Below, piece by piece: positions 42,845-58,019 of a DNA stretch of 64,000 bases. Each line of letters starts with the position of its first letter. Positions within the stretch are counted from its first letter, which is position 1. Source of the DNA: Trueperaceae bacterium. Lineage in GTDB: Bacteria; Deinococcota; Deinococci; Deinococcales; Trueperaceae. The stretch is from the NCBI GenBank assembly GCA_965213925.1, contig OZ243927.1:1760001-1824000 (forward strand), given 5' to 3'. The notes below the pieces were generated by a model. It was given only the letters and a program-made list of their open reading frames with translations, was not told where the DNA came from and made no database searches. The translations under genes and the position numbers were made by a program.

Positions 42845-44024
42845 GGCGTCCCTCCGCTAAGCCCGCTTCCGTCAAGAAGGTCTTCGCCGCCTCTAAGCCG
42901 TGCTCTCTCGCCACCGCGCGCAGACCCTTGATCGGCACGTGCGCGAACTTGTGTGCCAGCTTTTCCGCGTCCTCTTTCGGGAGGGAGTCACCGATGGTCG
43001 CCAGGTACATCTCGCGTAACCTTTTGATCGAGGGTCCGAGTTGCCGCTCGGTCCAGTTGGATAGAGCGGCGTCCAGCTCGAGCTGGACGATCCTCTCCGC
43101 TTCAGCGAACTTGTGCGCCAGCGCGCCGCGCCGCCCCTGGCTGGCGCTCTGCAACGTGTCCACGTTCAGCACGAACAGCGCGCGGGCTTTCGCCGCCGCG
43201 CGGTTCACGTTGCGCGGGATGCCTAAGTCCACGGCGATGCTGAGGTTGGGGAGCTTCTCCAGCAGCGCTTCATCCACTAAGTCTTTGACGGGCGTGGCGC
43301 AGATGAGGGCGTCTACGTCAGGCGGCTGCGCCAGGAAGTCGGCTAGGGAGAGGCTCGAGACGCATATGCCCTTCTCGTTCGGGCTCGAGAGGTGCTTAGA
43401 GAGTTGTTGCGCTCGCTCGGGGTTGCGGTTCACGATGACGAGGTCCGTACCCGCGCGGCTCGCCAGCGTCTTCGCGGCGAGCGTCCCCATCTCGCCTGCA
43501 CCGATGATGGCGACCTTCGCCTGGTCCGGCAGGCGCTTCTCCAACTCGGGGCGCGCTAAGCTAAACAAAGAGGTGTTGAGAGGCGCGAGCGCGACCTCGC
43601 GGCGCACTTTCTTCGCGGTGCGTAGCGCCATGTGGAACGCGAACGAGGTCCGAGGTCCGGTCGTCCCCGCGTCTTGCGCCGCCCTAAACGCTTCACGGAC
43701 TTGCGCCATAATCTGGTCTTCGCCGGGGTTTAAGGAGTCGAGCGAGGCGGCGACGCGCGTGATCTGCTCCAACGCGCCGTCTTCAACATAAGCGTAAGGG
43801 CGCACGCTCTGACCCGGCGGCGTGAGGATATCTCTTGCGCCATTCAGAGTCATGCCGCCCGGTAAGACGACGACTAAGTCCCAGCGGTTGCAGGTGACGA
43901 TAGCGACGTGTTCGGCGAAACCTAGCTCTGCTAAGACCTCCGGGGTGAAGGTGGTTTGCCACGCCTCGAGCGCCGCCGCGCCGCCACGACGGTGTGAGAC
44001 GCCTATGAGTGCGAGTCTGTTCAC
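42837..44024 (-). CDS. hemA: glutamyl-tRNA reductase
   Basis: TCNR, LDS..PGEDQI..Q, GAGEM, DLG.PRN. Confidence 0.95.
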   Translation of the reverse strand: MNRLALIGVSHRRGGAAALEAWQTTFTPEVLAELGFAEHVAIVTCNRWDLVVVLPGGMTLNGARDILTPPGQSVRPYAYVEDGALEQITRVAASLDSLNPGEDQIMAQVREAFRAAQDAGTTGPRTSFAFHMALRTAKKVRREVALAPLNTSLFSLARPELEKRLPDQAKVAIIGAGEMGTLAAKTLASRAGTDLVIVNRNPERAQQLSKHLSSPNEKGICVSSLSLADFLAQPPDVDALICATPVKDLVDEALLEKLPNLSIAVDLGIPRNVNRAAAKARALFVLNVDTLQSASQGRRGALAHKFAEAERIVQLELDAALSNWTERQLGPSIKRLREMYLATIGDSLPKEDAEKLAHKFAHVPIKGLRAVAREHGLEAAKTFLTEAGLAEGRRE

Positions 44025-44099
44025 ACCTTTTATTTTATTCGGAATGATTCTGAAAGAGTGTCATAGAAGTGTCAAAATCAAAATATAGAGAAACAATCT

Positions 44100-45221
44100 T
44101 TAGAACAAAATCATTGAAGGCAGCCTCTTCTCAAACTCTTTCTCCCATTCCTTGGGAGCTTCAAAGGTTACAAATGCAGGCAATCGCGCCTCCATAAATT
44201 TGTTGCCGTTTTCTACACACTCACAAAGATAGTTGGCGCATCTATTGATTAGAAAGGGTTGCCGAAAGAGATGAAGTAGGGTACTCAACATATACTGTGC
44301 CACGAAACTCTGATGTTCCATATCGTCACTTTGCAGTTTTTTCCACACGATTTGTTCAAGCTTACTTTTGCTTTGTGGAGAAAGATATTCTGCTATATTA
44401 GAAATCCAGGTTGCATCAGTATTGCTAGTATACTTGCTTTCCGGTTCGTAAGTAGCACCTTCGACAGCCTCAATAAGTGCGTTCTCGGCTCTAAGACGAG
44501 GCATCTTTTGAATTCTAGGCCATAGATATGCAGGCAGTACTTTGACGGCTAGACTTATCTCGTATTCTTCCTGTACCTGCTGTAACTCGTCAGAAACAAC
44601 AAGAAGAAATTCATCAACTTCGTTTTCGGACAGCCTCTTCAACAAAATTTCTATTACAGGCTGAAAATTATCAGACTGCAGCCAAGTCTTCTGTCTGTAA
44701 AGTTCTATAATTGTGTCACTACGTTTTCGCACAGGAATTTTTTGAACCAATTCCTCAACGTAGTCTTGGTCTCTAACAAAGTACCTATCGGTTACCAACG
44801 AGATAAAACCCTCTATTGTGAATGACTGCTGGGATTCACCTAGAAAGTCCAGAAGATGATTTAGAAAAAGGATTATCGTGTCTGCTGTTTTCTTTGTGTC
44901 CTCTACTCGTTCGTGGCTACGAGGATTGCGGACGAAGGAATACATGCCCTTTAGCAACTCTTGAAGACCTATCTGTATATTTTTCTCGGTATCAGTCTGA
45001 AGCTTATTGACCTGAATTCTCGGCGATTTGCCCTTGCCAAAACCTAATGCTGCGCCGACAAGCTCTTTGCCATCGCCATCCAAACCTGACTTATCGCGAA
45101 GAACGTCAGTCAGAAAGCTCATTGCATCCTTAATTGCGTTCGTGTAGTTCTCCGACGTGTACGAGCCTTCGATAGCTACCCACAGTTCAGAGCTAATTTG
45201 CGTCTCGAGATTAACGTTAAT
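44100..45221 (-). CDS. TIGR02391/Ymh-like HEPN-domain protein; likely start upstream of the ORF-track ATG
   Basis: R.KSGL.GDG..LVG.A.G and RNPRSH (R-x4-H). AT-rich. In-frame N-terminal extension NLETQISSELW..YTNAIKDA. Confidence 0.75.
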   Translation of the reverse strand: MNVNLETQISSELWVAIEGSYTSENYTNAIKDAMSFLTDVLRDKSGLDGDGKELVGAALGFGKGKSPRIQVNKLQTDTEKNIQIGLQELLKGMYSFVRNPRSHERVEDTKKTADTIILFLNHLLDFLGESQQSFTIEGFISLVTDRYFVRDQDYVEELVQKIPVRKRSDTIIELYRQKTWLQSDNFQPVIEILLKRLSENEVDEFLLVVSDELQQVQEEYEISLAVKVLPAYLWPRIQKMPRLRAENALIEAVEGATYEPESKYTSNTDATWISNIAEYLSPQSKSKLEQIVWKKLQSDDMEHQSFVAQYMLSTLLHLFRQPFLINRCANYLCECVENGNKFMEARLPAFVTFEAPKEWEKEFEKRLPSMILF

Positions 45222-45288
45222 AGCAGACTCCAGAAGGCGAAGTTAGTTGACTCATCTTAACTCAAAGAAGTCTGTTGGGCTGTTATCG

Positions 45289-45900
45289 TCAGCTTCCGAA
45301 TGCTAATGTTTTCTTCGCCCACTCGAGCAACCCCTCCGCCGCCCGCCCTCTATGGCTCACGCGCCGCTTCTCCTCGCTCGTCGCCTCAGCAAAGCCCTTC
45401 TCCAAGTCGTAGCTGTAAAAAACGGGGTCGTAACCAAAGCCTTCCCGACCTCTTGGCGCAGATAGAATCTCACCTTCGCAAACGCCTTCGAATGAGTTGA
45501 CCTCTCCTCCTGGCGAAATCAGCACGAGGCTACAGACGAAGCGTGCGCCGCGCTTTTTCTCAGGTACGTCGCGAAGTTTGTCCAAAAGATAGGTGACACG
45601 TTCCGCAGGGGAGAGGTCGCCGCCGAATCTGGCGGAGTAGAGTCCGGGCTCGCCGTTTAGGGCGTCGACTTCTAAGCCGGAATCGTCCGCCAATGTGAAA
45701 GCGTCCATCTGCGAGGCAATGATTTGAGAAGCAACGTGCTTAGCTTTGATAAGGGCGTTTTCTCGGTAGCTTTGACCCGTTTCCTCAGGAAACTCCGTGA
45801 CGCCGACCTCTTTCGCGGAGACGATTTCTGTATTGAGTTCTGCTAAAATCTCCCGAAACTCCGCCACTTTTCCCGCGTTGCCCGTCGCTAACACGATCAT
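45289..45900 (-). CDS. rdgB: non-canonical purine NTP pyrophosphatase
   Basis: ATGNAGK..E, ADDSGL, GFGYDP.F, SHR. Confidence 0.96.
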   Translation of the reverse strand: MIVLATGNAGKVAEFREILAELNTEIVSAKEVGVTEFPEETGQSYRENALIKAKHVASQIIASQMDAFTLADDSGLEVDALNGEPGLYSARFGGDLSPAERVTYLLDKLRDVPEKKRGARFVCSLVLISPGGEVNSFEGVCEGEILSAPRGREGFGYDPVFYSYDLEKGFAEATSEEKRRVSHRGRAAEGLLEWAKKTLAFGS

Positions 45901-46640
45901 CCCAAATCGCTCCGAATACGCTCAAAAATACGCTGCACGGCGGTGATACCCGAGGCGACGAGTTGCACGTAGGTCTCGGCGGGGATAGGTCTCTCTTCGC
46001 CGCCCCCTTGTACCTCGACAAGTTGTCCGTCGGCGGTGGCGATGACGTTCAAGTCCACCTCGGCGCGGCTGTCCTCACTGTACTCGAGGTCTACTAAGGA
46101 TACGCCTCCTACCACCCCGACGCTCACCGCACCGAGTTCGTGGGTGAGGGGCCATTCGTCTAAACTCCCCTTACGAATGAGTTTATTTGCCGCGTCGTGC
46201 AGAGCAGCGTAGCCCGCTAAGATGCCCGCGCAGCGCGTGCCGCCGTCCGCCTCGATCACGTCGATATCGACCGTCAGAGTTTTGCCGTTAAAGAGCGTCA
46301 AGTCGGTGACGCTGCGCAGAGCGCGCCCGATGAGCCGCTGAATCTCCTGCGTTCGTCCGCCCGAATAGAGCCGTTCGCGCTGGACTCGTTCGGGTGTACT
46401 GCGCGGTAAAAGGGCGTATTCGGCGGTGAGCCAGCCGCTTTTGTTGCCTTTACCGCGCAGGTGCGGCGGCAGTTTGCTCTCTATCGTCACGGTAGCAATC
46501 ACGCGGTTATGACCCCACTCGACGAGCGCGGAGCCCTCGGCGTGGCGGCTGTAGCTGGGCGTGAGCTTGATGCCCCGGAGTTGCCCCGGACCTCTATCTG
46601 AGCGCGCACGCGCTCCTTGGGTCTCTTGTGGCGGCGTCAT
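45897..46640 (-). CDS. rph: ribonuclease PH
   Basis: GWLTAEY.LLP.ST, GRTQEIQRLIGR.LR, ADGGTR, DL.Y.ED. Confidence 0.96.
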   Translation of the reverse strand: MTPPQETQGARARSDRGPGQLRGIKLTPSYSRHAEGSALVEWGHNRVIATVTIESKLPPHLRGKGNKSGWLTAEYALLPRSTPERVQRERLYSGGRTQEIQRLIGRALRSVTDLTLFNGKTLTVDIDVIEADGGTRCAGILAGYAALHDAANKLIRKGSLDEWPLTHELGAVSVGVVGGVSLVDLEYSEDSRAEVDLNVIATADGQLVEVQGGGEERPIPAETYVQLVASGITAVQRIFERIRSDLG

Positions 46641-47004
46641 CGCACCGTCGACCTACGAGTCAACTGGTGCGTCAATTTGTGGTTGAAACGCTTCGGCTGA
46701 GGGGTTCCGAGCCCCGCTAACGTTGGAGAGTATAGAACACGCATGGCCCAAGCCTATCACTTGGAGGCTCGCCAACCTCTAGCCACGCCACTACACCCCG
46801 CTGCATTGCCCCTCTCTACCTGAAGGTTGGATGAACGCTCCATGTGACAAATTACCCATGCTCTTAAACGTTAGAAAGGTAACTTTAGAACTAGGAGAAC
46901 GTGCTGTGTAAGTTTTTCCTCTTGCGTCGTCCGCCAGGAGCGGGATGCTAGAGGATATACAACATGTAGCGCGGCTAAAAACCGTGCGCCAGAGGAGAAC
47001 CGTT

Positions 47005-48285
47005 ATGAAATACTTCTTGAACCTTTTGGGACCTGTGGGTAAGCTCACCCCCTTTATCCTCAGCCTCGTTCTGCTCGCCGCTTGCAGCAGCGTTCAGCCT
47101 GGGTTGCCAGCTACCCCGACGACAGATACCTATACTCACTCTTTGAGCGTCGACATTGACGCCTCGAGCCTCAAAGCAGAGGTCGAAGCGCGCTATGGCG
47201 GCGACGTTATCGTGTGGCGTCCCGAAGCGGGCTTCGCGGTTTTAGGACTGAGTGGAAAGAGCGCGCTCAGCACACAAGCTTTAGAGGGCGCGGTTATCGA
47301 ACCTAACCAGGACGAAGTCGCTGCGCCCGAAGCGGAGGTGGCGGCCTCGAGTGTGTGGGGTGGGGGAGAAAATGTTTGGTCCGGTGGGGAAAATGTTTGG
47401 TCCGGTGGAACTGACGCCATCTCAGAACCTACCCTGTCCCGGCAAAACGCCGATATTTGGTGGCAGGTCAACCTCGGCGGCGGTCTCGCATTAGCGCCGC
47501 GCAAAGGCTCGGGTGTCAAAGTTGCTGTGATCGACAGCGGCATCGACTTGCACCACCCTGCCTTTTCCAACCGCCTCGCCCCGCGTCACGAGTGGAAAGA
47601 CTTTGTCGACGGTGACACCTACCCTCAAGAGGAGCGCTCAGCGGAGGGCGAGAGCGGCAACTACGGTCACGGTACGGGCGTCGCGGGCATTGTTTTACAG
47701 GTGGCACCTAACGCGACGATTTTGCCCTTACGTGTGCTTGGCGCTGAAGGTATAGGGGATATCACCGACGTGGCGGCGGCGATAGACCACGCCCTCGCGT
47801 GGGGCGCGGACGTCATCAACCTCTCGCTAGGCACGAACGAGGACTCCGAGGTGCTCAACCGGATGCTCGCGCTGGCTGCCGAACGCAGAGTACTTATCAC
47901 CGCGTCGTCGGGCAATACGGGCGACGGCAACATTACCTATCCCGCTCGCAACGCTCGCGTCGGCGTAAAAGGAGGCGCGTACTTGCTGAGCGTCGGTAGC
48001 GTGAACGCCTACAACGCGCTTTCCACCTTCTCCACCTACGGCGAAGCGTTGGAGATGACCGCGCCCGGCGAATTCGTCTACACCGCTTTTCCCGATAACC
48101 GAGTCGGCTATTGGAGCGGCACGTCGTTCTCTGCCCCGATGGTGGCGGGCACCGTCGCCCTAGTTTTGGGGGAAGAAAGGGACGAAAAGGACGTGGCTAA
48201 AAAGTTGGACGAGCTTGTGAGAAACCACAGCTTGTATTACGTTCGTCTCAACGTCAGAGATTTTGTAGGCTGGGTCCTTGACTGA
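47005..48285 (+). CDS. S8 subtilisin-like serine peptidase, lipoprotein
   Basis: Lipobox LAAC; VIDSG, HGT.VAG and GTSFSAP triad; ATG 47005 after GAGGAG. Confidence 0.93.
   Translation: MKYFLNLLGPVGKLTPFILSLVLLAACSSVQPGLPATPTTDTYTHSLSVDIDASSLKAEVEARYGGDVIVWRPEAGFAVLGLSGKSALSTQALEGAVIEPNQDEVAAPEAEVAASSVWGGGENVWSGGENVWSGGTDAISEPTLSRQNADIWWQVNLGGGLALAPRKGSGVKVAVIDSGIDLHHPAFSNRLAPRHEWKDFVDGDTYPQEERSAEGESGNYGHGTGVAGIVLQVAPNATILPLRVLGAEGIGDITDVAAAIDHALAWGADVINLSLGTNEDSEVLNRMLALAAERRVLITASSGNTGDGNITYPARNARVGVKGGAYLLSVGSVNAYNALSTFSTYGEALEMTAPGEFVYTAFPDNRVGYWSGTSFSAPMVAGTVALVLGEERDEKDVAKKLDELVRNHSLYYVRLNVRDFVGWVLD
47352..47409 (+). repeat. 21-bp tandem repeat encoding VW(G/S)GGEN
   Basis: Protein reads VWGGGENVWSGGENVWSGG. 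Confidence 0.8.
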
Positions 48286-48309
48286 TCGGCTAAGCCGCCA
48301 CGCTTGCAT

Positions 48310-50130
48310 TTAGCGCTTGACCTGATCTTTGCCGCCACGCTTGGCCTCGTACATCTTGTCGTCCGCGAGGCTGAGCATCTTTTCGTAGTCGAGCACTCGA
48401 ATATCATCCGTAAGCCCTATGCTCGCGGTGACCTGCAGGTCAGGATGCACGCTCCCCCAGGGGTAGGTTCTAATAGCGCGCCAAATCCGCTCGCAGATGA
48501 TGCTGGCTTCGTCTGCCGAGGTTTCGGGGAAGTAGCCGACAAATTCCTCACCGCCGTAGCGAGCGACCGTATCGATTTCGCGCACGCTGTTATGGAGAAG
48601 CTGCGCAACCGCCCGGAGCACCTCGTCGCCAACACGATGTGAAAATCTGTCGTTGATCTTTTTGAAGTCGTCGAGGTCGCAGATCACGACGCTGAGGTTG
48701 AGTCCGAAGCGGCGCGCGCGGGCGAACTCCTGCGCGAGCTGGATGTCGAAGTGGCGGCGGTTATAGAGACCCGTCAGGGCGTCCTCTCGCGCTTGCTGCT
48801 CGAGCTGGCTTAGAAGCTGCGACTTTTGATGGTTAGCGCGCTGCAGCGACTCAGTTAGTACCCTGAGCCCCTCGTTCGCTTGTGCTAGCTCCACATTTCG
48901 AAGGCGATAGATTTCCGTTTCTTTCTCGGCTTGCTCGATTTCAAACTGGACGCGCAGACTTTGGAGCTTGAGGTCTGAACTTTCGTTAAAAACTTTGTCT
49001 TTTGCTTCGATGTAGCGTTGCAGGTGCTCGAGCGCTTCGCGAAATACCCCTTTACGCCAGTACACCTCGGCGAGCGTTTCGTGCGTTTTGTAAATAACAG
49101 CCTGACTGCTAATTTGGTGAGCATATGCTAATGCTTCGTGGAGTGATGCGGTAGCTTCATCGTAGCGTTCCTCCTCTGACCACACTTGCGCTAGGAAAAC
49201 CTGAGTTTGTGCCCGACCTTTTAAGTCACCCGCTTCTTCTTTGATAGCTAAACTCTGCTTTAGAAATGCTTCAGCTTCCCTAAATTGCGCTAGTTCAAGA
49301 TGGGTTTGTCCCAAATGATCAAGTACAAAACTTTCGCCTAAACGATTTTCTAAAGTGTCCATCTGTTTCAAGCTTTTATCGCCGTAAGTACGTGCTTGTT
49401 CATAGTTACCAAGCTTGAGATAAGTGCGACCGATGTTACACAGACTAAATGCTTGAGTATATCTTTCTTCCGCAGCCTCACTAATTGCTAAACACTGCAA
49501 AAAGTACTTGAGCGCTTCGGAGTAACGTTTACGCTCGTAATAGATTGTACCCACATTATGTAGCGCTTCAACCTCTCCTGTGCGGTCGTCCAGCTCTCTG
49601 AAGAGCCGTAGGCTCCGTAAGTGATAGTCTAGAGCGTTGGCATAGTCGCCTATAAAAGCGTAGATTGTACCAATATTATTAAGTGTTCCCGCTTCGCCTC
49701 GAGCGTCGTCCAATTCAGCACACAGCTTCTGCGCCTCTAAAAACACCTTGAGCGCCCCCAAGAGGTCGCCCGTATCGCCGTAAATAATACCCAGAGTATT
49801 AAGCGCTCGCTGCAACCCTTCTCTATCTTTAAGCTGTTCAAAAAAGGTGCGCGCCTCCACCACGTTTGCGAGGGCGTCCTCGAGTTGCGAGAGGCGCATC
49901 TGGCAGTAGCCCTTCGTGAGCAGGCTGTAAGCTAAGCCTTGTGTATGTCGCAAGTCTCTGGCTAGCGCGTGGGCTTCTTGGCTCAACTCTAACGCCCGCC
50001 TCGTATCGACACGTCGCAACTCCCAAGCTAGCTCGCTGAGGAGTTCCAGGCGAGCCGCCGAATTTTCGTTCGTGACTCGCGTGAGGTTGTCCTCTAAATT
50101 CTTGACGCGCTCGGCTTGTTCGGTGTTCAT
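48310..50130 (-). CDS. TPR-repeat diguanylate cyclase
   Basis: Multiple TPR repeats, DALTGLYNRR, RxxD I-site (REID), GGEEF. Start re-called at 50130. Confidence 0.93.
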   Translation of the reverse strand: MNTEQAERVKNLEDNLTRVTNENSAARLELLSELAWELRRVDTRRALELSQEAHALARDLRHTQGLAYSLLTKGYCQMRLSQLEDALANVVEARTFFEQLKDREGLQRALNTLGIIYGDTGDLLGALKVFLEAQKLCAELDDARGEAGTLNNIGTIYAFIGDYANALDYHLRSLRLFRELDDRTGEVEALHNVGTIYYERKRYSEALKYFLQCLAISEAAEERYTQAFSLCNIGRTYLKLGNYEQARTYGDKSLKQMDTLENRLGESFVLDHLGQTHLELAQFREAEAFLKQSLAIKEEAGDLKGRAQTQVFLAQVWSEEERYDEATASLHEALAYAHQISSQAVIYKTHETLAEVYWRKGVFREALEHLQRYIEAKDKVFNESSDLKLQSLRVQFEIEQAEKETEIYRLRNVELAQANEGLRVLTESLQRANHQKSQLLSQLEQQAREDALTGLYNRRHFDIQLAQEFARARRFGLNLSVVICDLDDFKKINDRFSHRVGDEVLRAVAQLLHNSVREIDTVARYGGEEFVGYFPETSADEASIICERIWRAIRTYPWGSVHPDLQVTASIGLTDDIRVLDYEKMLSLADDKMYEAKRGGKDQVKR

Positions 50131-50363
50131 GAAGTATGCATCGCCCCTCACTTTTAGTGTATCTCGCTTTTCTCGAGAATGAAAGTCCGCAAAAACCAAA
50201 CCCTCTAGGGGCGCTCTCGCTACTAAACTGAGGCAGAAAAGACGGACTCGTTTAAAGCCTGAAGTGAATAGGGTTCGACTTCCGTGGTGTGGTCGTCTGG
50301 TCTAAAAATGTCCTGCGTGACGACCTCGTCAAGCCTCCCCTAATTTATGATGTACCCCACCGC

Positions 50364-50420
50364 TTGACAGAGACGCGCGTCTTTACCTATACTGAGCTTA
50401 CCTTATTTATTAAGGTAAGC
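50364..50420 (+). promoter_or_regulatory. sigma70-type promoter plus palindromic operator of the lexA-like gene
   Basis: TTGACA-18 nt-TATACT followed by GCTTACCTTA-TTTAT-TAAGGTAAGC (perfect 10-bp inverted repeat). Confidence 0.8.
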
Positions 50421-50449
50421 ACGAGGCTAAAGAAGGAGACTGTGGAGCT

Positions 50450-51064
50450 ATGAGCCAGTTACCCAAGATGCAGCGCAAAGTTTACGAGCGAATCTGCGAG
50501 CATAAGTCGCGAACGGGCACCTGCCCGGAGCTTGCCGTTTTTGCGCGTGAGCTAAATATTCACTACGTGTCGCTCAAGCAGCATCTCGAGGCGCTCCACA
50601 AAAAGGGCTATCTGGTCTTCGAGAGCCGGGGCAGAGGGCAGTCGCCGAGGCTCGAGCTGCCCGCCAGAGCCACGGGCGTGCCCGTTTTAGGGAGCATTCC
50701 CGCAGGTCCACTCAGCGAGGCGTTAGCCGAGCCCGAGGGCTACTTGCCGCTCCACGACGGACAGAGCAACTTCGCGCTGCGGGTCTCGGGCGATTCGATG
50801 GCAGACCTTATTCAAGACGGCGACGTAGTGGTCTTCAAAAAGGGCGTCCCGATGCGCAGCGGCGAAATCTGCGCGGTGCGCGTCGGTAACAGCGAGGTCA
50901 CGTTGAAGTATCTCGACAAACTCGACCCGAAAACGGTCGCGCTGAGACCTCACAACCCGCAGTACCCGACGCTCTCCGTGGACGCGAGAGAGGTCCACAT
51001 CGAAGGGATTTACTTGGGTCTCGTGCGCGGCGAACTGCTCAGTTCGCTTTACGAGGAGGTGTGA
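50450..51064 (+). CDS. lexA: LexA-like self-cleaving repressor (wHTH plus S24 peptidase)
   Basis: HL.AL..KGYL winged helix, G.IPAG.L cleavage site, V.GDSM catalytic Ser, TLK catalytic Lys. Confidence 0.88.
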   Translation: MSQLPKMQRKVYERICEHKSRTGTCPELAVFARELNIHYVSLKQHLEALHKKGYLVFESRGRGQSPRLELPARATGVPVLGSIPAGPLSEALAEPEGYLPLHDGQSNFALRVSGDSMADLIQDGDVVVFKKGVPMRSGEICAVRVGNSEVTLKYLDKLDPKTVALRPHNPQYPTLSVDAREVHIEGIYLGLVRGELLSSLYEEV

Positions 51065-51078
51065 TTTTAGCGTCGTCA

Positions 51079-51114
51079 TTGAATCGCGCGAGTATTACCT
51101 TAAAGTGTTACGTA
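51079..51114 (+). promoter_or_regulatory. promoter overlapped by a second operator copy
   Basis: TTGAAT-16 nt-TAAAGT; TACCTTA-AAGTG-TTACGTA at 51096-51114. Confidence 0.6.
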
Positions 51115-51189
51115 CCGAATGAACGGCTCAGGAGCGTAACCAGATAATACCCGTTGCGAATGTAGAGATTCCTCTCAAAAGCAGATGAC

Positions 51190-51295
51190 CAAAGCAAAAG
51201 CCCGCGCCCCATCCGCCAAGAGTTGCGCGAGCCCACGCCTTGTCCGTCTAGCTCATACCCGTTTTCAGGCGGGACTAAAGGAGAACTAGCTCATG
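51190..51295 (-). ncRNA. putative ~100-nt cis-antisense RNA
   Basis: Minus-strand TTGACA at 51324-29 with a weak -10. Minus-strand terminator GCTCGCGC-loop(TTGGCG)-GCGCGGGC-TTTTGCTTT. Confidence 0.5.
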
Positions 51296-51661
51296 AACTA
51301 TCCTGCACGCATCTTTAGGGATTTGTCAAGTGTTTGGCAAAGGGACGCCGCGAGTCAGCGCGTCGACATCCTAGCCGCCGAACTCACCGCCTGCGTCGCC
51401 GCGCAAGGCACGCTCTGCTTAGGTCTCATCCGCGCTGAGGCGGTGCCTAAGTACTTCGGTCTGGTTTACCTCTTAGACGGCTACGGTATCTTGCTGCGCA
51501 AGCGTCACAGAAAAGAGGGGGGCGTGCTCGTTTTTGCCGAGGTCAAGCGAGAGGTCGCGTCCGAGTTTGCGGGCGCAGTCGTCACCGAGCGCACTTTAGC
51601 GCCTTCTAAAACTGCCACAACCACGGTTGAAGTCGCAAGAGAATTCGCGCACGCCGCGTAA
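51293..51661 (+). CDS. hypothetical protein, first gene of the operon downstream of lexA
   Basis: AAGGAG RBS; 11 nt from the next gene; no family recognised. Confidence 0.65.
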   Translation: MNYPARIFRDLSSVWQRDAASQRVDILAAELTACVAAQGTLCLGLIRAEAVPKYFGLVYLLDGYGILLRKRHRKEGGVLVFAEVKREVASEFAGAVVTERTLAPSKTATTTVEVAREFAHAA

Positions 51662-51672
51662 GGAGGGTTGAG

Positions 51673-52350
51673 ATGAATACGAGTACCGACCTGACCTGGG
51701 AAACACTTTTGGAGAAACTCGCGCGACCCTTCCCGGTGTCCTCGATTTACTGGCGAGCGGGCGTGGTTAGCCGCGACAAGAAGCGGGCGCAGGCGCTACC
51801 TTACGCTGAGCCGCGCGTGTACGAAGACCGCCTTAACGGAGTCTGTCCTGGTCTCTGGAGCGTCTCCTTCCGTCCTTGGGGCGAATCGCGCATCATCTGC
51901 GACCTCTCGATCGGCGAATTGACGCGCTCCTCTACAGGGGAGGAGAACGAGGGTTTCGCGCCCGGTACGGCGGCGGAGGCGCAGGCGTTTAAGCGCGCTT
52001 GCGTGAAGTTCGGTCTCGGTCGCTACCTCTACGACGTTCCGATCGTCTGGGTTCCTTACGACGAGAAGTCGCGGAAGCTCACCGAGACGCCGACCTTGCC
52101 TGAGAAGTTTTTGCCTCACGAGCAAAGCGCACCGCCCACCCTCTCCGAAGGACGCGCCACCGCCATGCACCGCGAGCTAGAGAAGTTGGGTCTCGTCAAG
52201 CCTGAGCAGTATAGGCTCGCCGCGCGTGTGCTCGGTCACGAGGTCGCGCAGTTCACCGCGCTCACCGAAGCCGAGGCGTTAGAGGTCTGGAACGTCGCCA
52301 AGCGTGCTCAGGTAGGGCAGGGCGGTCCGTCAGCGCAGCGAGCGGCGTGA
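51673..52350 (+). CDS. Rad52/Rad22-family (DdrA/Sak-like) single-strand annealing protein
   Basis: L..PF....W, RVYEDRLN.V, AFKRACVKFGLGRYLYD; GGAGG RBS. Confidence 0.9.
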   Translation: MNTSTDLTWETLLEKLARPFPVSSIYWRAGVVSRDKKRAQALPYAEPRVYEDRLNGVCPGLWSVSFRPWGESRIICDLSIGELTRSSTGEENEGFAPGTAAEAQAFKRACVKFGLGRYLYDVPIVWVPYDEKSRKLTETPTLPEKFLPHEQSAPPTLSEGRATAMHRELEKLGLVKPEQYRLAARVLGHEVAQFTALTEAEALEVWNVAKRAQVGQGGPSAQRAA

Positions 52351-52529
52351 CGAGCGCCGCCGTCCCTACCGCCACGGCTGAAACCGCTGAACGCGAACGC
52401 CTCTACCGCTGCCCCAAATGTAAACGCCGCGTGACGGTTTTGCTCGAGAACGTCGCCGTAAGCTGCAGTCGCTGTGGCCGGATGATGAAGCGCGTTGACG
52501 GTGGCGCTGAGCGAGTTCACACAGCTTAG
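52347..52529 (+). CDS. small zinc-ribbon protein
   Basis: CPKC..CSRC; GTGA overlap with the Rad52-like gene. Confidence 0.65.
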   Translation: MTSAAVPTATAETAERERLYRCPKCKRRVTVLLENVAVSCSRCGRMMKRVDGGAERVHTA

Positions 52530-52702
52530 TAGGCTTGAATAAGCTCTTCTTAGTTCGGCGAGTGACGTAGTTTTGAAAAGGGATAGGCTCGAGTTCGCGT
52601 TGAGACTCGAGCCTCTTCCAACCGCTCTCGAGCCAGGTGTACGCCCCTGCCCAACTGCTTTGTTTAGTTCTCTTAACTACGCGGCGCTGCCGAAAGGACG
52701 AT

Positions 52703-52960
52703 ATGAATACCGGGCTTACTCTCACAACCTGTCCGCATTGTGACGGTGAAGGAGGAGAAATGTACGCAGCCGGACCTGGCTACTATGCGCCTCACTCTGG
52801 CGGTTATCTTCCCTTCGAACAGACCGATATATGCGAGATATGCGAAGGCTCAGGTGAGGTAGAGGTGTGCGCCCACTGCTTAGAACCTTTAGACGTCTTG
52901 CACGGCGAAGAGGTATGTGGCTGCGCTGCACTCAGCGCAGCCGTGCGACAAGCTGCGTAA
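52703..52960 (+). CDS. small Cys-rich zinc-finger protein with DnaJ-like CxxCxGxG repeats
   Basis: CPHCDGEG, CEICEGSG, CAHC, CGC; AAGGA RBS before ATG 52703. Confidence 0.7.
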   Translation: MNTGLTLTTCPHCDGEGGEMYAAGPGYYAPHSGGYLPFEQTDICEICEGSGEVEVCAHCLEPLDVLHGEEVCGCAALSAAVRQAA

Positions 52961-52970
52961 AGAACTCGCG

Positions 52971-53828
52971 TTAGGGTGCGCGCTGCTTGAGTTGGTCGGA
53001 AACGTCTTGCGCAAGCTCGCGCCCTAGTTCTTCAGCCTCGCTCGCCTCGCCCGAAATCTCCGCTTGGATAACGAGGTCGCCCGCCATGTCGGTCACTGCG
53101 CCGAAGAGGTTCAAGTCGCCCTCCGAAGTGACGGTGGCAAGTGCGCCTAGCGCATGCGACGCGCTCCCTAGCGCCCTAGCGAAGCTCCGCTCGGCGCGGG
53201 CGCGGTCGAAGCTGGGGCGGTGCTGAAGGGTGTAGGCGAGATCGGTGGCGAGGTCGTCGTCTTCGTTGACGACCAAACCGAGCGACCCCTGCCCGGCAGC
53301 CGGGGTGAAGACGGCAGGCTCTAAAAGGACGTTGATGCGTTCTCTGCGCTCGAGCTGAAGCAGATGCGCGCTCGGCATCACGAGCGCGTTCACTTCGCCC
53401 GTAGCGAGCAGCGACAGCGTCACGTCAACGTCGCCGGAGACCGTCTTGACTTCGATATCCTTGCGGTTGGCGAGTAAGAAGGCGCGGTCGCGCTGGGTGC
53501 GAACGCCCACTACGCTACCTGCCGCTAGTGACGCTAAGTCCTCACCCGCGCGGTTGACTAGGGCGGCGCGGGGCTCGAGCCGCCTCGTCACAGCGGCGAG
53601 CATGAGCCCTTCGGGGAGGGTCGGAGGCAATCCCTCCAAGCTCTGCAGCGCAATATTGATGCGCCCGGTTGAAAGCGCATTCAGGAGGTTGGTTGCGCCG
53701 TTATCACCTTGCACAGTTTTCTGGATGATGTTGACGTCAGGCCAGCCCTCACTCAGTTCGGCGAGGACGCCGCGGGCTTGCGGCAGCGCCAAGACACCGC
53801 CCCGATTTCCTAAAACAATTCTAGGCAT
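52971..53828 (-). CDS. HemC-like protein lacking catalytic residues
   Basis: HemC-like motifs (G.RG..LAL.Q, PAAGQG.L, AERSF) but SLEG in place of SxKD and no GGC. Confidence 0.82.
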   Translation of the reverse strand: MPRIVLGNRGGVLALPQARGVLAELSEGWPDVNIIQKTVQGDNGATNLLNALSTGRINIALQSLEGLPPTLPEGLMLAAVTRRLEPRAALVNRAGEDLASLAAGSVVGVRTQRDRAFLLANRKDIEVKTVSGDVDVTLSLLATGEVNALVMPSAHLLQLERRERINVLLEPAVFTPAAGQGSLGLVVNEDDDLATDLAYTLQHRPSFDRARAERSFARALGSASHALGALATVTSEGDLNLFGAVTDMAGDLVIQAEISGEASEAEELGRELAQDVSDQLKQRAP

Positions 53829-54037
53829 GTGTTGGTTTCGTAGAGCGGTTTAAGGGTTGCTTCAATCTAGGCACGCTGCCAAGTACATAGTTAGACATAT
53901 GGTCGAACACACAGTATTTTACAGTAAATGCGTGGCGGGCGCTATAAAGACCGGACGGCGTCACCATCTCACCGACAACACATACTCGGCTACCTGTACT
54001 GGAGACGGCTTGAATAGCTTTTTCGAATTTTGGGCTG

Positions 54038-54314
54038 CTAGCCGATCCCTTCGATAATCACATCAGCGGTGAGCTGCGAGCTTGCTGGTGCGAACGTTGG
54101 CGCGCAGCCGTTTCTCGAAGGCGCTGTTATCTTGCTCGAGCCAGAAGGGAGTGCCCCGAGCTTAGAAAACTCGGCTAAGACTTCATCGACGCTCAAGCTG
54201 TTGGCCAGCAAATCCAAAATATCGACGACGCGAATGCGCTCATACGCGAATGCAGGGTCTGCCACCACACTGCTTAGGTTTGACGGCAATGCGGTCTATA
54301 ACGTAGGTGGTCAT
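54038..54314 (-). pseudogene. DUF433-family gene, frameshifted
   Basis: ATG 54314 reads MTTYVIDRIAVKPKQCGGRPCIR, then shifts to RIRVVDILDLLA.SLSVDEVLAEF. Confidence 0.75.
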
Positions 54315-54372
54315 GAATTTAGCATAGACGAAAGCGGTGCACCTAGACAGAGTTGGGGGGCGTCCTCTCGAG

Positions 54373-54702
54373 CTAGTTAGCTACACGTGGGTCGGATACC
54401 TGCCAGGCCATCTCTTGCTCTCGAGCAATCCGGTAAAAGACAGACTCCCCCGTTTTTAGTCGGAACTCGACGTAGCTGTAGTTACCGAGACGAAACGATC
54501 GGCTCTTGGTGATGCGCGTACCTGGATGATCAGTCCGAAACTGCTTCTTCGCTAGACAAGCGCCGCCAACACGGAAGAGGTAGAAGAGCCAGCTTAGAAT
54601 ACCAATAACGGCGGAAATAAAAATGTAAACGAGCGCGACGGCCGCGCCTCCGCCTGGGAAGATGATGTAGTCACCTACTTGCATAATAGAATTATCCGAC
54701 AT
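54373..54702 (-). CDS. small hypothetical membrane protein
   Basis: ATG 54702; one long hydrophobic segment. Confidence 0.45.
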   Translation of the reverse strand: MSDNSIMQVGDYIIFPGGGAAVALVYIFISAVIGILSWLFYLFRVGGACLAKKQFRTDHPGTRITKSRSFRLGNYSYVEFRLKTGESVFYRIAREQEMAWQVSDPRVAN

Positions 54703-54793
54703 CGCGAAGCGGAATTCTTTCAAAAGCTCACATCTCGTTATAGTTGCAAAGTATTTAACGCAAAGTTCGGGAGAGGAACACCTACAACCACCC

Positions 54794-55846
54794 TCAAAAC
54801 GCATACCGCACCTCACAATACGGCAACTTCTCAGCGAGGAGCGTCTTAAACTCTCGCACCCGCGCCCCCTTAAACCCGCGCCGATACCGCACATTCTTCC
54901 CGCCCATCTTCGACACCTTCGCCTCTTGGTTCTCGGGCGTCCAGAGCAGGTCTTCGGCCTGCGGGTGCCACCCCAAGTTGACCTCGTGCAACCCCTCGTT
55001 GTGCGTCAGGAAGATGACCTCGCACTTGAGCTGCGCCTTAGCCTCTTCGGAGAGCACGTCGTCCACCTCTTCAAGTAGCGCGGCGTAGTCCTCGAGCCAG
55101 CCCTCATAGAGGATGACCGGGCTAAAGTTGAGGTGCACCTCGTAGCCCGCCGCCACGAAGTCATCTACCGCCGCGATGCGCTCGCTCATAGGCGAAGTGC
55201 GCACGTCTACTGTCTTAGCGACTTTTTGCGGCATGAGCGAGAAGCGGATGCGGGTCTTGCGCTGCGGGTCGTAGTTCAAGAGGTCGCGGTTGACGTATTT
55301 GGTCGCGAAAGAGGCTTTAGCGTTATCGAGGTCGCAGAAGAGCGCCACGAGGTCGCGGACATTGTCCGAGATGAGCGCGTCTACCGAACAGTCGCTGTTC
55401 TCGCCGACGTCGTAGACCCAGTAGACGGGGTCGGTTTGGAGGGGCGGCTTAGGGGGCTGTTTGGCGGCGTGGCGCTGAATCGCTTTGCACACCGCGCCTA
55501 TATTCACAAAGGCGCTGATGGGGTTGGCGTACCCCTTGCGGCGCGGCACGTAGCAGTAGGCGCACGCCATCGCGCAGCCGTTCGCGGTTCCTGGCGCGAT
55601 GAAGTCGCCGCTTCGCCCGTTCTCGCGTACTGGGAGTGACTTGCGCACGCCCAAGACGAGCACGTCTCGCTTGACGCGCACCCAGTCGTCCACCGAGCCC
55701 GCATTGCCGTGCAAGCTGGGGATGTTCCAGTGGGAAGGTACTTCGATCTGTTCTGCGTCAGGAAAACGCGCTAGAATTTCCATGCCTCTAGGGTAGGCGG
55801 GGACAGTGGGCTCGAGATATATCTGCTTGACGTCGAGAAGATTCAG
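54794..55846 (-). CDS. spore photoproduct lyase family radical SAM protein, copy 2, probable CTG start
   Basis: GCAMACAYCY, GENSD, FATK, RFSL, YEVHLNFSP, YAF C-terminus; AGGAG upstream of CTG 55846. Confidence 0.9.
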   Translation of the reverse strand: MNLLDVKQIYLEPTVPAYPRGMEILARFPDAEQIEVPSHWNIPSLHGNAGSVDDWVRVKRDVLVLGVRKSLPVRENGRSGDFIAPGTANGCAMACAYCYVPRRKGYANPISAFVNIGAVCKAIQRHAAKQPPKPPLQTDPVYWVYDVGENSDCSVDALISDNVRDLVALFCDLDNAKASFATKYVNRDLLNYDPQRKTRIRFSLMPQKVAKTVDVRTSPMSERIAAVDDFVAAGYEVHLNFSPVILYEGWLEDYAALLEEVDDVLSEEAKAQLKCEVIFLTHNEGLHEVNLGWHPQAEDLLWTPENQEAKVSKMGGKNVRYRRGFKGARVREFKTLLAEKLPYCEVRYAF

Positions 55847-55913
55847 AGGGGTCTCCTAAACCAAAAGAAAAGAGGTGCCAGCCGCCAACAGCCGACACCT
55901 CGTGCGCATCTGC

Positions 55914-56990
55914 TTACGTCCAGTAAAGTACTTGCGCTTCGGGGAAACGCACCGCGATCTCCGTCTCGAAAAAGCCGCGCAGGGTCGTCATCGTGTCCTT
56001 CGTATAGACGAACTTCGTGCCGCCAAACTTGTTGCGCTTGACGCTGCGGTTCTCCTCGCTCAGGTCGAGGCTCGAGTTCGGATACCAACCCTCCAAGACC
56101 TCTTTCGAGCCGGGCGTGAAGCGGTGGCTGATCAGCTCGAAGGTGAGGTCAACGGGGAAGTCCAGGGTCTGCTCGATCTCGTCGAAGAGCGCAGTGTAGT
56201 GCTCGCGCCAACCCTCGATGGGCATAATCGGTGCGATGACCAAACCGACAGGGTAGCCCGCCTGGGCGAGCTTGCGGATGGCTCCTAAACGGGCGGAGAT
56301 GGAAGCGGTGCCGCCCTCGAGCCGCTTGCCAATCGGCTCTGCGTTGACCGACGCGCGGGCTCTCGTCTGCCCATTGTGCGGCAGGTCGAGCAAACCGTCC
56401 ACCGCGTCGAACTTACTGACGTAACGCAGTGAGCCGTCCGTGCGCGTGCCGAAGTACTTGATGCACTCGGACAAGCTGCCCGTGAGGTGCTCCAAACCCA
56501 AGGGGTCGGTGTAGCACGACACCTCGAAAGAGGTCGGACCATCCTCGTACTGCGCCAAGTGACCCAAAATCTCGGGCAGGTTGGCGTAGACACGGGTTAC
56601 GGGCGGACCGGAGAGCGAGCCCGCTAGGTAGCAGTACTGACAATGCGCAGGGCAACCTTTGGCGAGGTGGAACTGCCAGTCGGCGGAGGGCGGGATAGGC
56701 TGGAGCTTCATCATGCTGGGCGGCGCATTGACAACCGCCAGGGTCTGCTTGGCGAGGCGATAGGTCTCGCGCTCATCTTTGCCGCGCAAGCCCGTGACGC
56801 GGTTGCTAGGAAGTTCGGTGATGTCTAAACCCAAAGAGGTCATGCGTTCGTACATCTGCTGACCGAAAGGTTGCTCTAAAGCGTCCGGGGTGAAGAGCAC
56901 GCGCTTAGGGGTCCAGAGCTTGGGCTTTTGCTGGCGAGGAGCGGGACGCGAAACGGAAGAGGTCGGGCGGATAGGCTCGGCTGCAGGCAA
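55914..56990 (-). CDS. splB: spore photoproduct lyase family radical SAM protein, copy 1, TTG start
   Basis: GCPAHCQYCYL, FE.SC.TDPL, GYP.G..IAPI, HRFT, YWT C-terminus. Confidence 0.92.
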   Translation of the reverse strand: MPAAEPIRPTSSVSRPAPRQQKPKLWTPKRVLFTPDALEQPFGQQMYERMTSLGLDITELPSNRVTGLRGKDERETYRLAKQTLAVVNAPPSMMKLQPIPPSADWQFHLAKGCPAHCQYCYLAGSLSGPPVTRVYANLPEILGHLAQYEDGPTSFEVSCYTDPLGLEHLTGSLSECIKYFGTRTDGSLRYVSKFDAVDGLLDLPHNGQTRARASVNAEPIGKRLEGGTASISARLGAIRKLAQAGYPVGLVIAPIMPIEGWREHYTALFDEIEQTLDFPVDLTFELISHRFTPGSKEVLEGWYPNSSLDLSEENRSVKRNKFGGTKFVYTKDTMTTLRGFFETEIAVRFPEAQVLYWT

Positions 56991-57081
56991 AGAGGTCTCC
57001 TTCTTCGCGAGAAAGTTGGGTTGTCTAAAGGGGTAAAAAGGTAGTGGAGTTGCGCTTGAGGTCGCTAACTAACTTGAGTTT

Positions 57082-57110
57082 ATTGTACTCAATTTTAAGG
57101 TGAAAAGCAA
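57082..57110 (-). promoter_or_regulatory. promoter of the spl pair containing an operator-like half-site
   Basis: TTGCTT-17 nt-TACAAT; the spacer contains CACCTTAAAATTGAG. Confidence 0.55.
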
Positions 57111-57181
57111 GGTGCCTGAGTCACATTTTAAGCTGTGCAGGACGAGGAAAAGTCAATTTTTCTACTGGTCATGGGGAAGAG

Positions 57182-57670
57182 CTACACATTGTCCCGAGAA
57201 GGTGGAAGAATACGAGCTAGATCATCTTCAACATCTAATCCGTACATTACAGCAAGTACGCCAAGCCGTAAGCCTATGTCTGAACGCAACTTGCCGAGAG
57301 ATGTAAAGAATTTCCAGCTTCTAGGACCCCCATCAAAGCTACTACGGATAATCAATTGCCGTTGTCCCTCCTGAACGTCATCTAAAAACTCTCGACAAGC
57401 AGCTCGCATGACTCGCAGATGTTCAGCTAAATCCTCCTGATTCTGTAGGCCTTGAAGCGTATCAGTAAGGAACTCACGTATCATCATTACCGATTCCACA
57501 CAATGCTCTAGCACCTCGAGTGCGTAATCGTTGTAAAGTACGCGCCTATCTTCAAAGAACGCTATTATGCGTCGCGCAACTGTAATCTCAGGTTCTGAGG
57601 GCTCCCAAGAAACGCCGAAGATTGGAATGCTGAATCCCGTGATACGGCTCGCTATCTCCTTATAGTGCAT
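57182..57670 (-). CDS. uncharacterised protein (DUF6650-like)
   Basis: RITGFS.P.FGVSW..FFEDRRVLY recalled as this family; appears lower in GC. Confidence 0.65.
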   Translation of the reverse strand: MHYKEIASRITGFSIPIFGVSWEPSEPEITVARRIIAFFEDRRVLYNDYALEVLEHCVESVMMIREFLTDTLQGLQNQEDLAEHLRVMRAACREFLDDVQEGQRQLIIRSSFDGGPRSWKFFTSLGKLRSDIGLRLGVLAVMYGLDVEDDLARILPPSRDNV

Positions 57671-57743
57671 GGTTACTCTTATACCGTATAGCGCGGCAAA
57701 AACCCTTCATCAAACCTTTTCGCTCAACGCCTTCACACGTCAT

Positions 57744-58019
57744 TCAAGCACTTTTGGGTAGAGGCATATCATCAGGCTCAGCGAACGCAACCTCGTGGAT
57801 AGCGTTCCAGTCAATCACAGCAATCCAGATATTTTCATCAGTAGAAAACTGGACGCGCCCCTCGGTCTCTAAATCTTCGCTGTAGAGCGTGAGGCGCAGA
57901 CCCTCTTCTAAGGTAATGCGCTGCCGTGATAAGTCTTGCACCGTACCAACACAATTGAGGCGCAAACGACCGTTTGGGTCGGCGCTGTGAAAGTCGGCGT
58001 ATACACGGGGGGTGCTCAT
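57744..58019 (-). CDS. putative immunity/antitoxin protein
   Basis: 91 aa, acidic C-terminus, 12 nt downstream of the toxin-like gene. Confidence 0.55.
   Translation of the reverse strand: MSTPRVYADFHSADPNGRLRLNCVGTVQDLSRQRITLEEGLRLTLYSEDLETEGRVQFSTDENIWIAVIDWNAIHEVAFAEPDDMPLPKSA

Follow-up and report, generated by a model that had tools for sequence, protein, structure and literature searches.

SymE of Escherichia coli is an AbrB-fold toxin, and with its antisense RNA, SymR, it forms a pair resembling the type I toxin–antitoxin systems. In the part of the published account drawn on here, SymR is a 77-nucleotide (nt) RNA whose promoter lies inside the open reading frame (ORF) of symE and which is antisense to the 5′ end of the SOS-induced mRNA, and SymE is held down at several levels, by LexA, by the SymR RNA and by Lon proteolysis (PMC1891008). 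Here we analyse a 64,000-nt stretch of a Trueperaceae genome (GenBank assembly GCA_965213925.1, contig OZ243927.1, positions 1,760,001–1,824,000; hereafter the window, with positions counted from its first letter). Its plus strand carries, in this order, lexA, a spacer of 228 nt, an ORF of 122 amino acids (aa) that we call X122, a Rad52/Erf-like gene and a Zn-ribbon gene. The spacer contains a minus-strand hairpin with a UUGGCG loop, and the start of X122 a candidate antisense promoter. We propose that these specify a small RNA that would act as an antisense insulator between lexA and the repair genes behind it, a reading that we regard as reasonably probable.

By analogy, the closest working counterpart of this locus is SymR/symE, and not IncI repYZ. 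As in SymR/symE, the predicted promoter lies within the target ORF, here in X122 codons 3–13 with the start at the start codon, and the target is under a LexA-type palindrome at which LexA would be expected to bind. The proteolytic layer may have a counterpart as well. The X122 family ends in an invariant Ala-Ala (C-terminal in 13/13 aligned homologues; A121 and A122, the last two codons, at 51656–51661), which we take to be reminiscent of degradation tags and which hints at a third layer of control. Unlike SymE, X122 has no Pfam match or clear fold match; unlike symE, it sits inside an operon, behind lexA itself, and belongs to the phylum Deinococcota. The predicted RNA also differs from SymR in its terminal hairpin, whose UUGGCG loop is of plasmid type.

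This loop is shared with a second group of described systems. A UUGGCG/CGCCAA loop in a sense/antisense pair 5′ of a start codon is found in Inc RNA/repY-repZ (ColIb-P9 and R64; related are IncB/IncK and CopA–CopT), and Asano and colleagues reportedly described in 1998 a role of the UUGGCG motif in Inc RNA binding. R64 (IncI1) carries a hairpin of 15 base pairs (bp) 5′ of its rep gene, with GAACUUGGCGGAACG in the loop of the mRNA strand, and CUUGGCGGA is common to this loop and the one in the window. Phage P4 contained no comparable hairpin. In R64 the UUGGCG is on the mRNA strand, whereas here it is on the antisense strand. Unlike IncI-alpha repYZ, the Trueperaceae loci have no conserved leader peptide and no conserved pseudoknot partner, and their context is a chromosomal lexA operon rather than a plasmid replication initiator.

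A minus-strand hairpin and a candidate antisense promoter

Read on the minus strand, GCTCGCGC (51232→51225) pairs with GCGCGGGC (51207→51200) over 8 bp, one of them G·U, and encloses a loop of 17 nt (plus-strand positions 51208–51224), in which UUGGCG is the complement of plus-strand positions 51214–51219. The core of the apical loop is the 13-nt UCUUGGCGGAUGG (plus-strand positions 51209–51221), the tip is able to close as AUC-UUGGCG-GAU, and TTTTGCTTT follows directly 3′ of the hairpin (51199→51191). A terminator-like hairpin with a G·U pair and a UUGGCG loop had been noted on this strand in the original prediction, which was made from the letters of the window. Comparison within the family bears it out: the hairpin recurs in all 13 loci with lexA directly 5′ of an X122-type gene, across five genera (g1, g4, g24, g34 and g8). 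The loop, UCUUGGC(G/C)GA(U/C), is nearly invariant, with UUGGCG in 12 of the 13 loci and UUGGCC in L006. Each locus has at least nine minus-strand stem pairs (in folds with the 11-nt loop word forced open), and the arm sequences vary by genus, being GCUCGCG/CGCGGGC in g1 and g4, GGCCCGC/GCGGGC in most g24, ACUCGCG/CGCGAGU in g8 and GGCGCG/CGCGCC in g34.

The two strands of the hairpin differ in the pairs that they can form. Helices comprise 16–22 pairs on the minus strand (57 G·U among 243 pairs) and 11–18 on the plus strand (8 G·U among 184 pairs). The minus-strand G·U positions are C·A mismatches on the plus strand, and in L016 the stem next to the loop is kept solely by minus-strand G·U pairs; pair content leans to the minus strand. 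The minimum of nine stem pairs per locus comes from constrained folds of the individual sequences, because MAFFT and model-fitted alignments left loop indels of 1–2 nt ungapped, which made the RNAalifold pair table unreliable.

A covariance model of the hairpin, R1, found it once in this genome at 72 bits, with the next match at 16.8 bits (E 1.2). A repeat element was considered and discarded, the spacer and the hairpin both being single-copy in this genome. A scan with the Rfam 15 covariance models, including the C4/P4-type phage antisense RNAs, gave no match at E ≤ 1 in window positions 44000–58000. The consensus terminator scan did not list the hairpin, because it was restricted to loops of 3–8 nt. 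A rough check for pairing of the 13-nt loop with rRNA, which located one 16S site but neither the 23S nor the 5S genes, gave no near-match within several kb of that site.

A minus-strand TTGACA with a weak −10 hexamer, CAGGAT, had likewise been noted, and the two are present inside the start of X122, 18 nt apart (Table 1). In the 4.75-Mb genome, TTGACA-N18-CA[CG]GAT has one occurrence, against 0.68 expected. The weight lies in the comparison between loci: exact TTGACA-N18-CA[GC]GAT stands in 12 of the 13 hairpin loci, with the complement of the start codon 5–7 nt past the −10. The minus-strand TTGACA is present in 10 of the 11 X122 loci with the hairpin and in both g8 loci, and in none of the 11 X122 loci without it.

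The same bases stand out in the codon usage of X122. In a codon alignment of 11 loci, the only columns of at least four-fold degeneracy with near-zero entropy were Pro4 (CCT, 10/11) and Ser12 (TCA, 10/10), the remaining columns of four-fold or higher degeneracy having 0.72–2.2 bits. Codon 3 ends in T in 11/11 hairpin loci, and Tyr and His elsewhere in X122 are almost all TAC or CAC. Homologues with the same ATG and no hairpin (L009, L017, L018, L019 and L023) have CCC or GCC, with mostly C- or A-ending codons at positions 3–4, and L015 writes an identical Leu-Ser-Ser as CTG AGC AGC. Since these homologues use other codons, the constraint is no general effect of gene starts. The genus g8 separates nucleotide from protein even more directly. 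There the −10 is CACGAT at the same 18-nt spacing, Pro has become Arg and the downstream peptide is unrelated, yet ATCGTG...TGTCAA is kept. What is conserved is therefore the nucleotides and not the protein.

From these elements we infer that the minus strand gives rise to a cis-antisense RNA of about 100 nt, which would end at the hairpin and repress X122. Its promoter, of sigma-70 type, would be written into X122 codons 3–13, with the transcription start on or beside the complement of the start codon of X122. From there the RNA would cross the complement of the Shine-Dalgarno (SD) sequence and a first stem-loop, and end at the UUGGCG hairpin. The 105-nt predicted RNA folds with a minimum free energy (MFE) of −42.5 kcal/mol (z −2.26; equalled by 5 of 200 shuffles) into a 12-nt unpaired 5′ end that can pair with the AUG and the bases preceding it, followed by stem-loop 1 and the terminal hairpin. 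This two-domain layout is common to the predicted RNAs, of 76–143 nt, of the 12 promoter-bearing loci. Stem-loop 1, which the original prediction had seen on the opposite strand as a hairpin at the ribosome-binding site (RBS), is kept by differing sequences in three loci of the same genus (CCCG/CGGG, CCCGUU/AACGGG and CCCACC/GGUGGG). That antisense RNA controls this leader had been one part of the prediction, and the joint conservation of promoter hexamers and UUGGCG hairpin across five genera supports it. The sequencing runs listed for this DNA were two DNA contig runs from one study, with no RNA run among them.

Gene order and the proposed insulator

The family comparison drew on 128 Trueperaceae genomes, 20 of which hold X122 homologues (E ≤ 1e-8). 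A search for related loci with the single protein returned nothing, and one with alignment A2 returned 9 loci, all from Trueperaceae or Truepera. After removal of L001, which duplicates the window, and of L011 and L013, which have no X122 match, lexA stands directly upstream of X122 in 11 loci, including that of the window, and the loop word TC[CG]GCCAAGA is present in the spacer of all 11. It is present in none of the 11 loci (9 orthologous, 2 paralogous) without lexA upstream. Model R1 gave a similar distribution, with matches in 17 of the 128 genomes at E ≤ 0.01. Thirteen of these were strong, comprising the 11 lexA–X122 loci and two of g8; the four weak ones (G107, G116, G117 and G131) were judged to be noise because they have no lexA or X122 and their loop words are imperfect. 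In 114 genomes from the other four families of the order, R1 had no match at E ≤ 0.001.

In g8 the hairpin is again found 3′ of lexA. Two genes follow it there, first a short ORF and then a divergent X122-like gene; rad52 is not beside them but lies elsewhere in the genome. The short ORF (L042:1579-1738 and L043:864-975; 54 or 33 codons) reads M-x-Y-R-A...L-S-S. The L042 copy shares an ATGA overlap between its stop and the start of the gene that follows, a layout that would permit translational coupling.

The second part of the pattern concerns the promoter region of lexA, where a palindrome of the form TACCTTA-N5-TAAGGTA lies directly 3′ of the lexA promoter. The genome contains six perfect and three one-mismatch sites of this form and none of a reversed control, and one perfect site lies 32 nt 5′ of recA. 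The palindrome is likely to be the LexA operator, and hence a candidate LexA box of the Trueperaceae. It is present 5′ of lexA in all 12 hairpin loci for which that region was in hand, and 5′ of X122 in all nine loci examined without lexA upstream. X122 thus occurs in two states, either with its own LexA box and with neither hairpin nor antisense promoter, or behind lexA with the hairpin. The promoter and terminator scans called nothing in the lexA–X122 spacer, so the simplest reading is that X122, rad52 and the Zn-ribbon gene are transcribed by read-through from the promoter of lexA. As a side observation, the N5 of the palindrome is AT-rich, and the sites precede lexA, recA, a Mu GemA-like gene, a glyoxalase/bleomycin-resistance-like gene and an unknown 127-aa ORF. 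A two-mismatch palindrome just past the lexA stop (51096–51114) was considered as a second LexA box and rejected, loci of the same genus being without it.

Because loci in which X122 has its own LexA box are without hairpin and antisense promoter, we interpret the RNA as insulating the repair genes from lexA. The proposed mechanism is as follows. lexA and X122-rad52-Zn would form one SOS-controlled transcript from the lexA promoter. As lexA needs basal transcription for its self-repression, genes fused behind it would leak. The antisense RNA, made constitutively, would pair with the intercistronic leader, cover the X122 SD and AUG and soak up the basal message, thereby setting a threshold. First contact would probably be made from loop to loop, between UUGGCG and CGCCAA. 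Once paired, the RNA would keep ribosomes from entering at X122 and might lead to the duplex being cleaved, and the repair genes would be translated only once the SOS-raised mRNA exceeds the antisense RNA. The antisense RNA would thus probably keep the repair genes untranslated until DNA is damaged.

Such a threshold against basal leakage would explain why the module is confined to the lexA-fused gene order. The original prediction had offered another reason for a second lock, namely that the first gene is harmful when uncontrolled; the association with gene order agrees better with an uncoupling of the repair genes from the transcription of lexA.

If made, the RNA would add a second, post-transcriptional layer to the SOS response of a radiation-resistant Deinococcota lineage. 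It would then be a clear natural case in which an antisense RNA within an operon lets the gene of an autoregulated repressor stay on while the genes fused to it stay silent. The two gene orders within one family would form a natural experiment on the need for such a device. The reading would also connect the UUGGCG-loop hairpins of plasmids and phages with a stress operon on the chromosome, and it would mark X122, the partner of a Rad52/Erf-like annealing protein, as a tightly controlled protein that deserves study.

Same-loop hairpins elsewhere and rival explanations

Hairpins with the same loop also occur outside the Trueperaceae. A 17-base search word, running across the loop into the first bases of the 3′ arm, was found in at least 120 metagenome stretches, of which 80 were fetched, and in 34 stretches of viral contigs, including groups of related contigs, against 3 for the reversed control. 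As the word fixes the loop, the constancy of the loop in the metagenome and viral sets is given by construction. None of the 80 fetched metagenome loci contained lexA or X122. In 13 of the 114 fetched loci the word sits on a stem of at least 9 bp of unrelated sequence. The 13-nt loop UCUUGGCGGAUGG is carried on unrelated GC-rich stems by phage, Mu-like and integrative-element contigs (L075, L085, L099, L100, L104, L105, L123, L140, L191, L193, L194, L199, L201 and L218).

The neighbours of these hairpins are HTH_17-like, integrase, Mu-type transposase and AAA_22 genes, and their placement takes several forms. Six of them (L075, L100, L105, L085, L099 and L140) have a promoter 95–130 nt upstream and a U-tail, stand beside HTH_17-like genes and resemble stand-alone small RNA genes. 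In L191, L194, L218 and L199 the hairpin separates two co-directional genes of a Mu-like or other element and is antisense to the leader of the second. In L123 and L193 it is on the same strand as an integrase gene, about 50 nt 5′ of it. When seven metagenome loci carrying such a hairpin were searched against Rfam, the sole match, to an internal ribosome entry site, was a chance one (E 0.83), and BLAST of the small-RNA unit of L075 against phage and plasmid collections gave no match.

A possible though tentative reading of these copies is that the hairpin belongs to a widespread RNA module, absent from Rfam, in which a GC stem of any sequence carries the fixed loop UCUUGGCGGAUGG. The loop would be a fast-pairing (kissing) or factor-binding handle for antisense control in phages, Mu-like and integrative elements and plasmids. 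The Trueperaceae may have recruited one copy, together with the phage-type Erf/Rad52 protein, into the SOS regulon as an insulator behind lexA.

Several observations weigh against the insulator reading. The consensus promoter scan did not list the antisense promoter, because the −10 CAGGAT matches the consensus at only three of six positions. One hairpin locus, L010 (from the unpublished genome G035), has no recognisable antisense promoter. Counted by eye in the 9 nt after the core stem, at least five U follow the hairpin in 6 of the 13 loci, four in another four and two or fewer in three; with a good U-tail in only six loci and none in three, termination at the hairpin is not assured. Raw folding energy is lower on the minus strand in 13/13 loci, but this is compositional: the mean dinucleotide-shuffle z-scores are −2.05 for the minus strand and −2.04 for the plus strand, and folding energy was therefore rejected as evidence for a strand. 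On the X122 tree the hairpin state requires only one or two changes and is compatible with a single origin, so the association with gene order amounts to one or two events and not to 20 independent ones. Finally, some same-loop hairpins of phage contigs lie between co-directional genes without an obvious antisense promoter, so that the sense hairpin may matter in itself.

This last point leads to the best surviving rival, which we nevertheless consider unlikely: that no antisense transcript is made and that the function resides in the hairpin of the sense strand (loop CCAUCCGCCAAGA), which in the intercistronic RNA between lexA and X122 would set the ratio of lexA to downstream expression as a site of processing, stability, attenuation or protein binding. 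The equal fold z-scores of the two strands and the promoterless L010 are in its favour, as are the three Mu-like loci L191, L194 and L218 and also L199, where the loop lies between two co-directional genes, 45–85 nt 5′ of the second start codon, and a pattern scan found no antisense promoter. It leaves unexplained why TTGACA-N18-CA[GC]GAT is present in 12/13 loci and why synonymous codons of X122 are constrained. Many stem positions of the sense strand are C·A and its helices are the shorter ones (11–18 against 16–22 pairs), no U-tract follows the hairpin on the plus strand, and the whole sense leader is not unusually stable. A working sense hairpin is in any case compatible with the antisense insulator, as the kissing-loop model requires both hairpins.

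A further rival places the function in the DNA, with the hairpin as an inverted repeat bound by a protein or as a single-stranded DNA hairpin with a part in recombination or replication; mobile elements would have carried it, and here it would have been kept next to an annealing protein of phage type. In favour of this, the loop word is about 11 times commoner in viral contigs than the reversed control (34 against 3 stretches), and it adjoins integrase, transposase and excisionase-like genes in either orientation. The stems, however, vary and yet keep their pairs, many of them G·U, which have no DNA equivalent, and several copies resemble small RNA genes, with a promoter 95–130 nt upstream and a U-tail. 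The 17-nt loop would also argue against cruciform extrusion, and the site is not repeated in this genome. On balance a DNA-level site is very improbable.

The original prediction had modelled the leader on the antisense control of plasmids and phages, with IncI repYZ as its example: a leader peptide, encoded by an upstream ORF (uORF), an RBS-occluding hairpin and an antisense RNA would together gate a harmful first gene. The two sense-strand parts of this scheme fared differently from the antisense part. The plus-strand helix is real (about 51243–51273), but it stops short of the SD AAGGAG, with which it had been said to overlap, and the 131-nt sense leader folds no better than chance (z +1.31; 191 of 200 shuffles are as stable or more so), and occlusion of the RBS is not supported. 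The 34-codon uORF exists and ends 3 nt before the ATG of X122, as described; its ATG form is confined to the window locus, 1 of the 11 lexA-linked loci examined, the other 10 having no ATG counterpart, and it was rejected as a functional part. L003 has a TTG-started remnant of 25 codons, L004 nothing equivalent, and the frame is a different one in other genera; the spacers of L016 and L024 contain no ORF of at least 15 codons. Loop length differences, mostly of 1–2 nt and of 3 nt in L024, shift the frame between genera, and for this reason a minus-strand ORF of 42 aa (51108–51236), considered as a small protein, was rejected as well. GGCGG before the SD, a possible repZ-style partner of the sense loop, is present in the window, and by eye L003, a locus of the same genus, and L006 and L007 have no complementary word.

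A repYZ-type switch is consequently the weakest of the rivals and hardly credible, since the joint presence of uORF, hairpin and UUGGCG loop in the window, and of CUUGGCGGA in the loop of the 15-bp R64 hairpin, is outweighed by the lack of conservation of the uORF and the GGCGG partner, by a plus-strand hairpin that ends before AAGGAG, and by a UUGGCG on the antisense strand of a chromosomal SOS operon with no replicon. Overall the prediction is partly supported: the sequence observation is largely real and comparison speaks well for its antisense reading, but not for the uORF, RBS-hairpin and repYZ parts.

One further pairing in the sense leader is recorded here as a side observation. CUAAAG at the SD (51275–51280) is complementary to CUUUAG in X122 codons 7–9 (51313–51318), and the MFE structure of the sense strand pairs them. 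The Arg codon in this stretch is AGR in 9 of 10 hairpin loci and CGN/CGA in 6 of 9 orthologous loci without the hairpin. Other genera show no clear retention of this pairing.

Features and neighbouring genes of the locus

The features of the locus are collected in Table 1. A GGDEF/TPR gene and hemC flank it, and the locus is therefore regarded as chromosomal and not as a prophage immunity region.

Table 1. Positions of the genes and sequence elements discussed, numbered from the first letter of the window.
Feature	Position	Strand	Basis or remark
lexA promoter, TTGACA-18-TATACT	50364..50393	+	promoter scan, 11/12 matches
SOS-box-like palindrome, TACCTTA-N5-TAAGGTA, TTACCTTATTTATTAAGGTAA	50399..50417	.	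sequence; directly 3′ of lexA promoter
lexA (204 aa)	50450..51064	+	Pfam Peptidase_S24 5.4e-24, LexA_DNA_bind 4.3e-07
uORF, 34 codons	51185..51289	+	listed ORF; ends 3 nt 5′ of X122 ATG
Predicted cis-antisense RNA, ~100 nt	51190..51294	-	free 5′ tail (complement of AUG and SD), stem-loop 1, stem-loop 2
U-rich tail, UUUUGCUUU	51191..51199	-	sequence
Conserved GC-rich hairpin	51200..51232	-	arms 51225-51232 and 51200-51207; sequence, folds, covariance model
Stem-loop 1 of predicted antisense RNA	51243..51282	-	previously described as RBS hairpin on opposite strand
SD of X122, AAGGAG	51278..51283	+	sequence
X122, 122-aa ORF	51293..51661	+	family-less in Pfam and PHROGs
Candidate antisense -10, CAGGAT	51300..51305	-	X122 codons 3-5, yAT CCT G; 18-nt spacer from -35
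Candidate antisense -35, TTGACA	51324..51329	-	X122 codons 11-13, xTG TCA Agy
Rad52/Erf-like single-strand annealing protein (SSAP)	51673..52350	+	Pfam Rad52_Rad22 1.2e-05; PHROG 1097, Erf-like SSAP, 2e-21
Zn-ribbon protein (60 aa)	52347..52529	+	weak Zn-ribbon Pfam matches; overlaps stop of Rad52/Erf-like gene; kept downstream in related loci

X122 matched no Pfam family at E ≤ 0.01 and no PHROGs entry. Its AlphaFold2 model (predicted local distance difference test, pLDDT, 82.3) consists of helices and a three-stranded sheet, and a fold search gave no clear match, the best hits being at E 0.13 with Foldseek and at Z 5.6 in the VIA wide search.

Two minor observations concern other genes of this genome. 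An ORF of 107 aa 3′ of the Zn-ribbon gene (52637–52960), family-less in Pfam and PHROGs, is kept in L003, L004 and L007, and a homologue of it adjoins the X122 paralogue in L014. A second Peptidase_S24 protein is encoded elsewhere in the genome (G000:C1:3909314-3909673, 50.4 bits).

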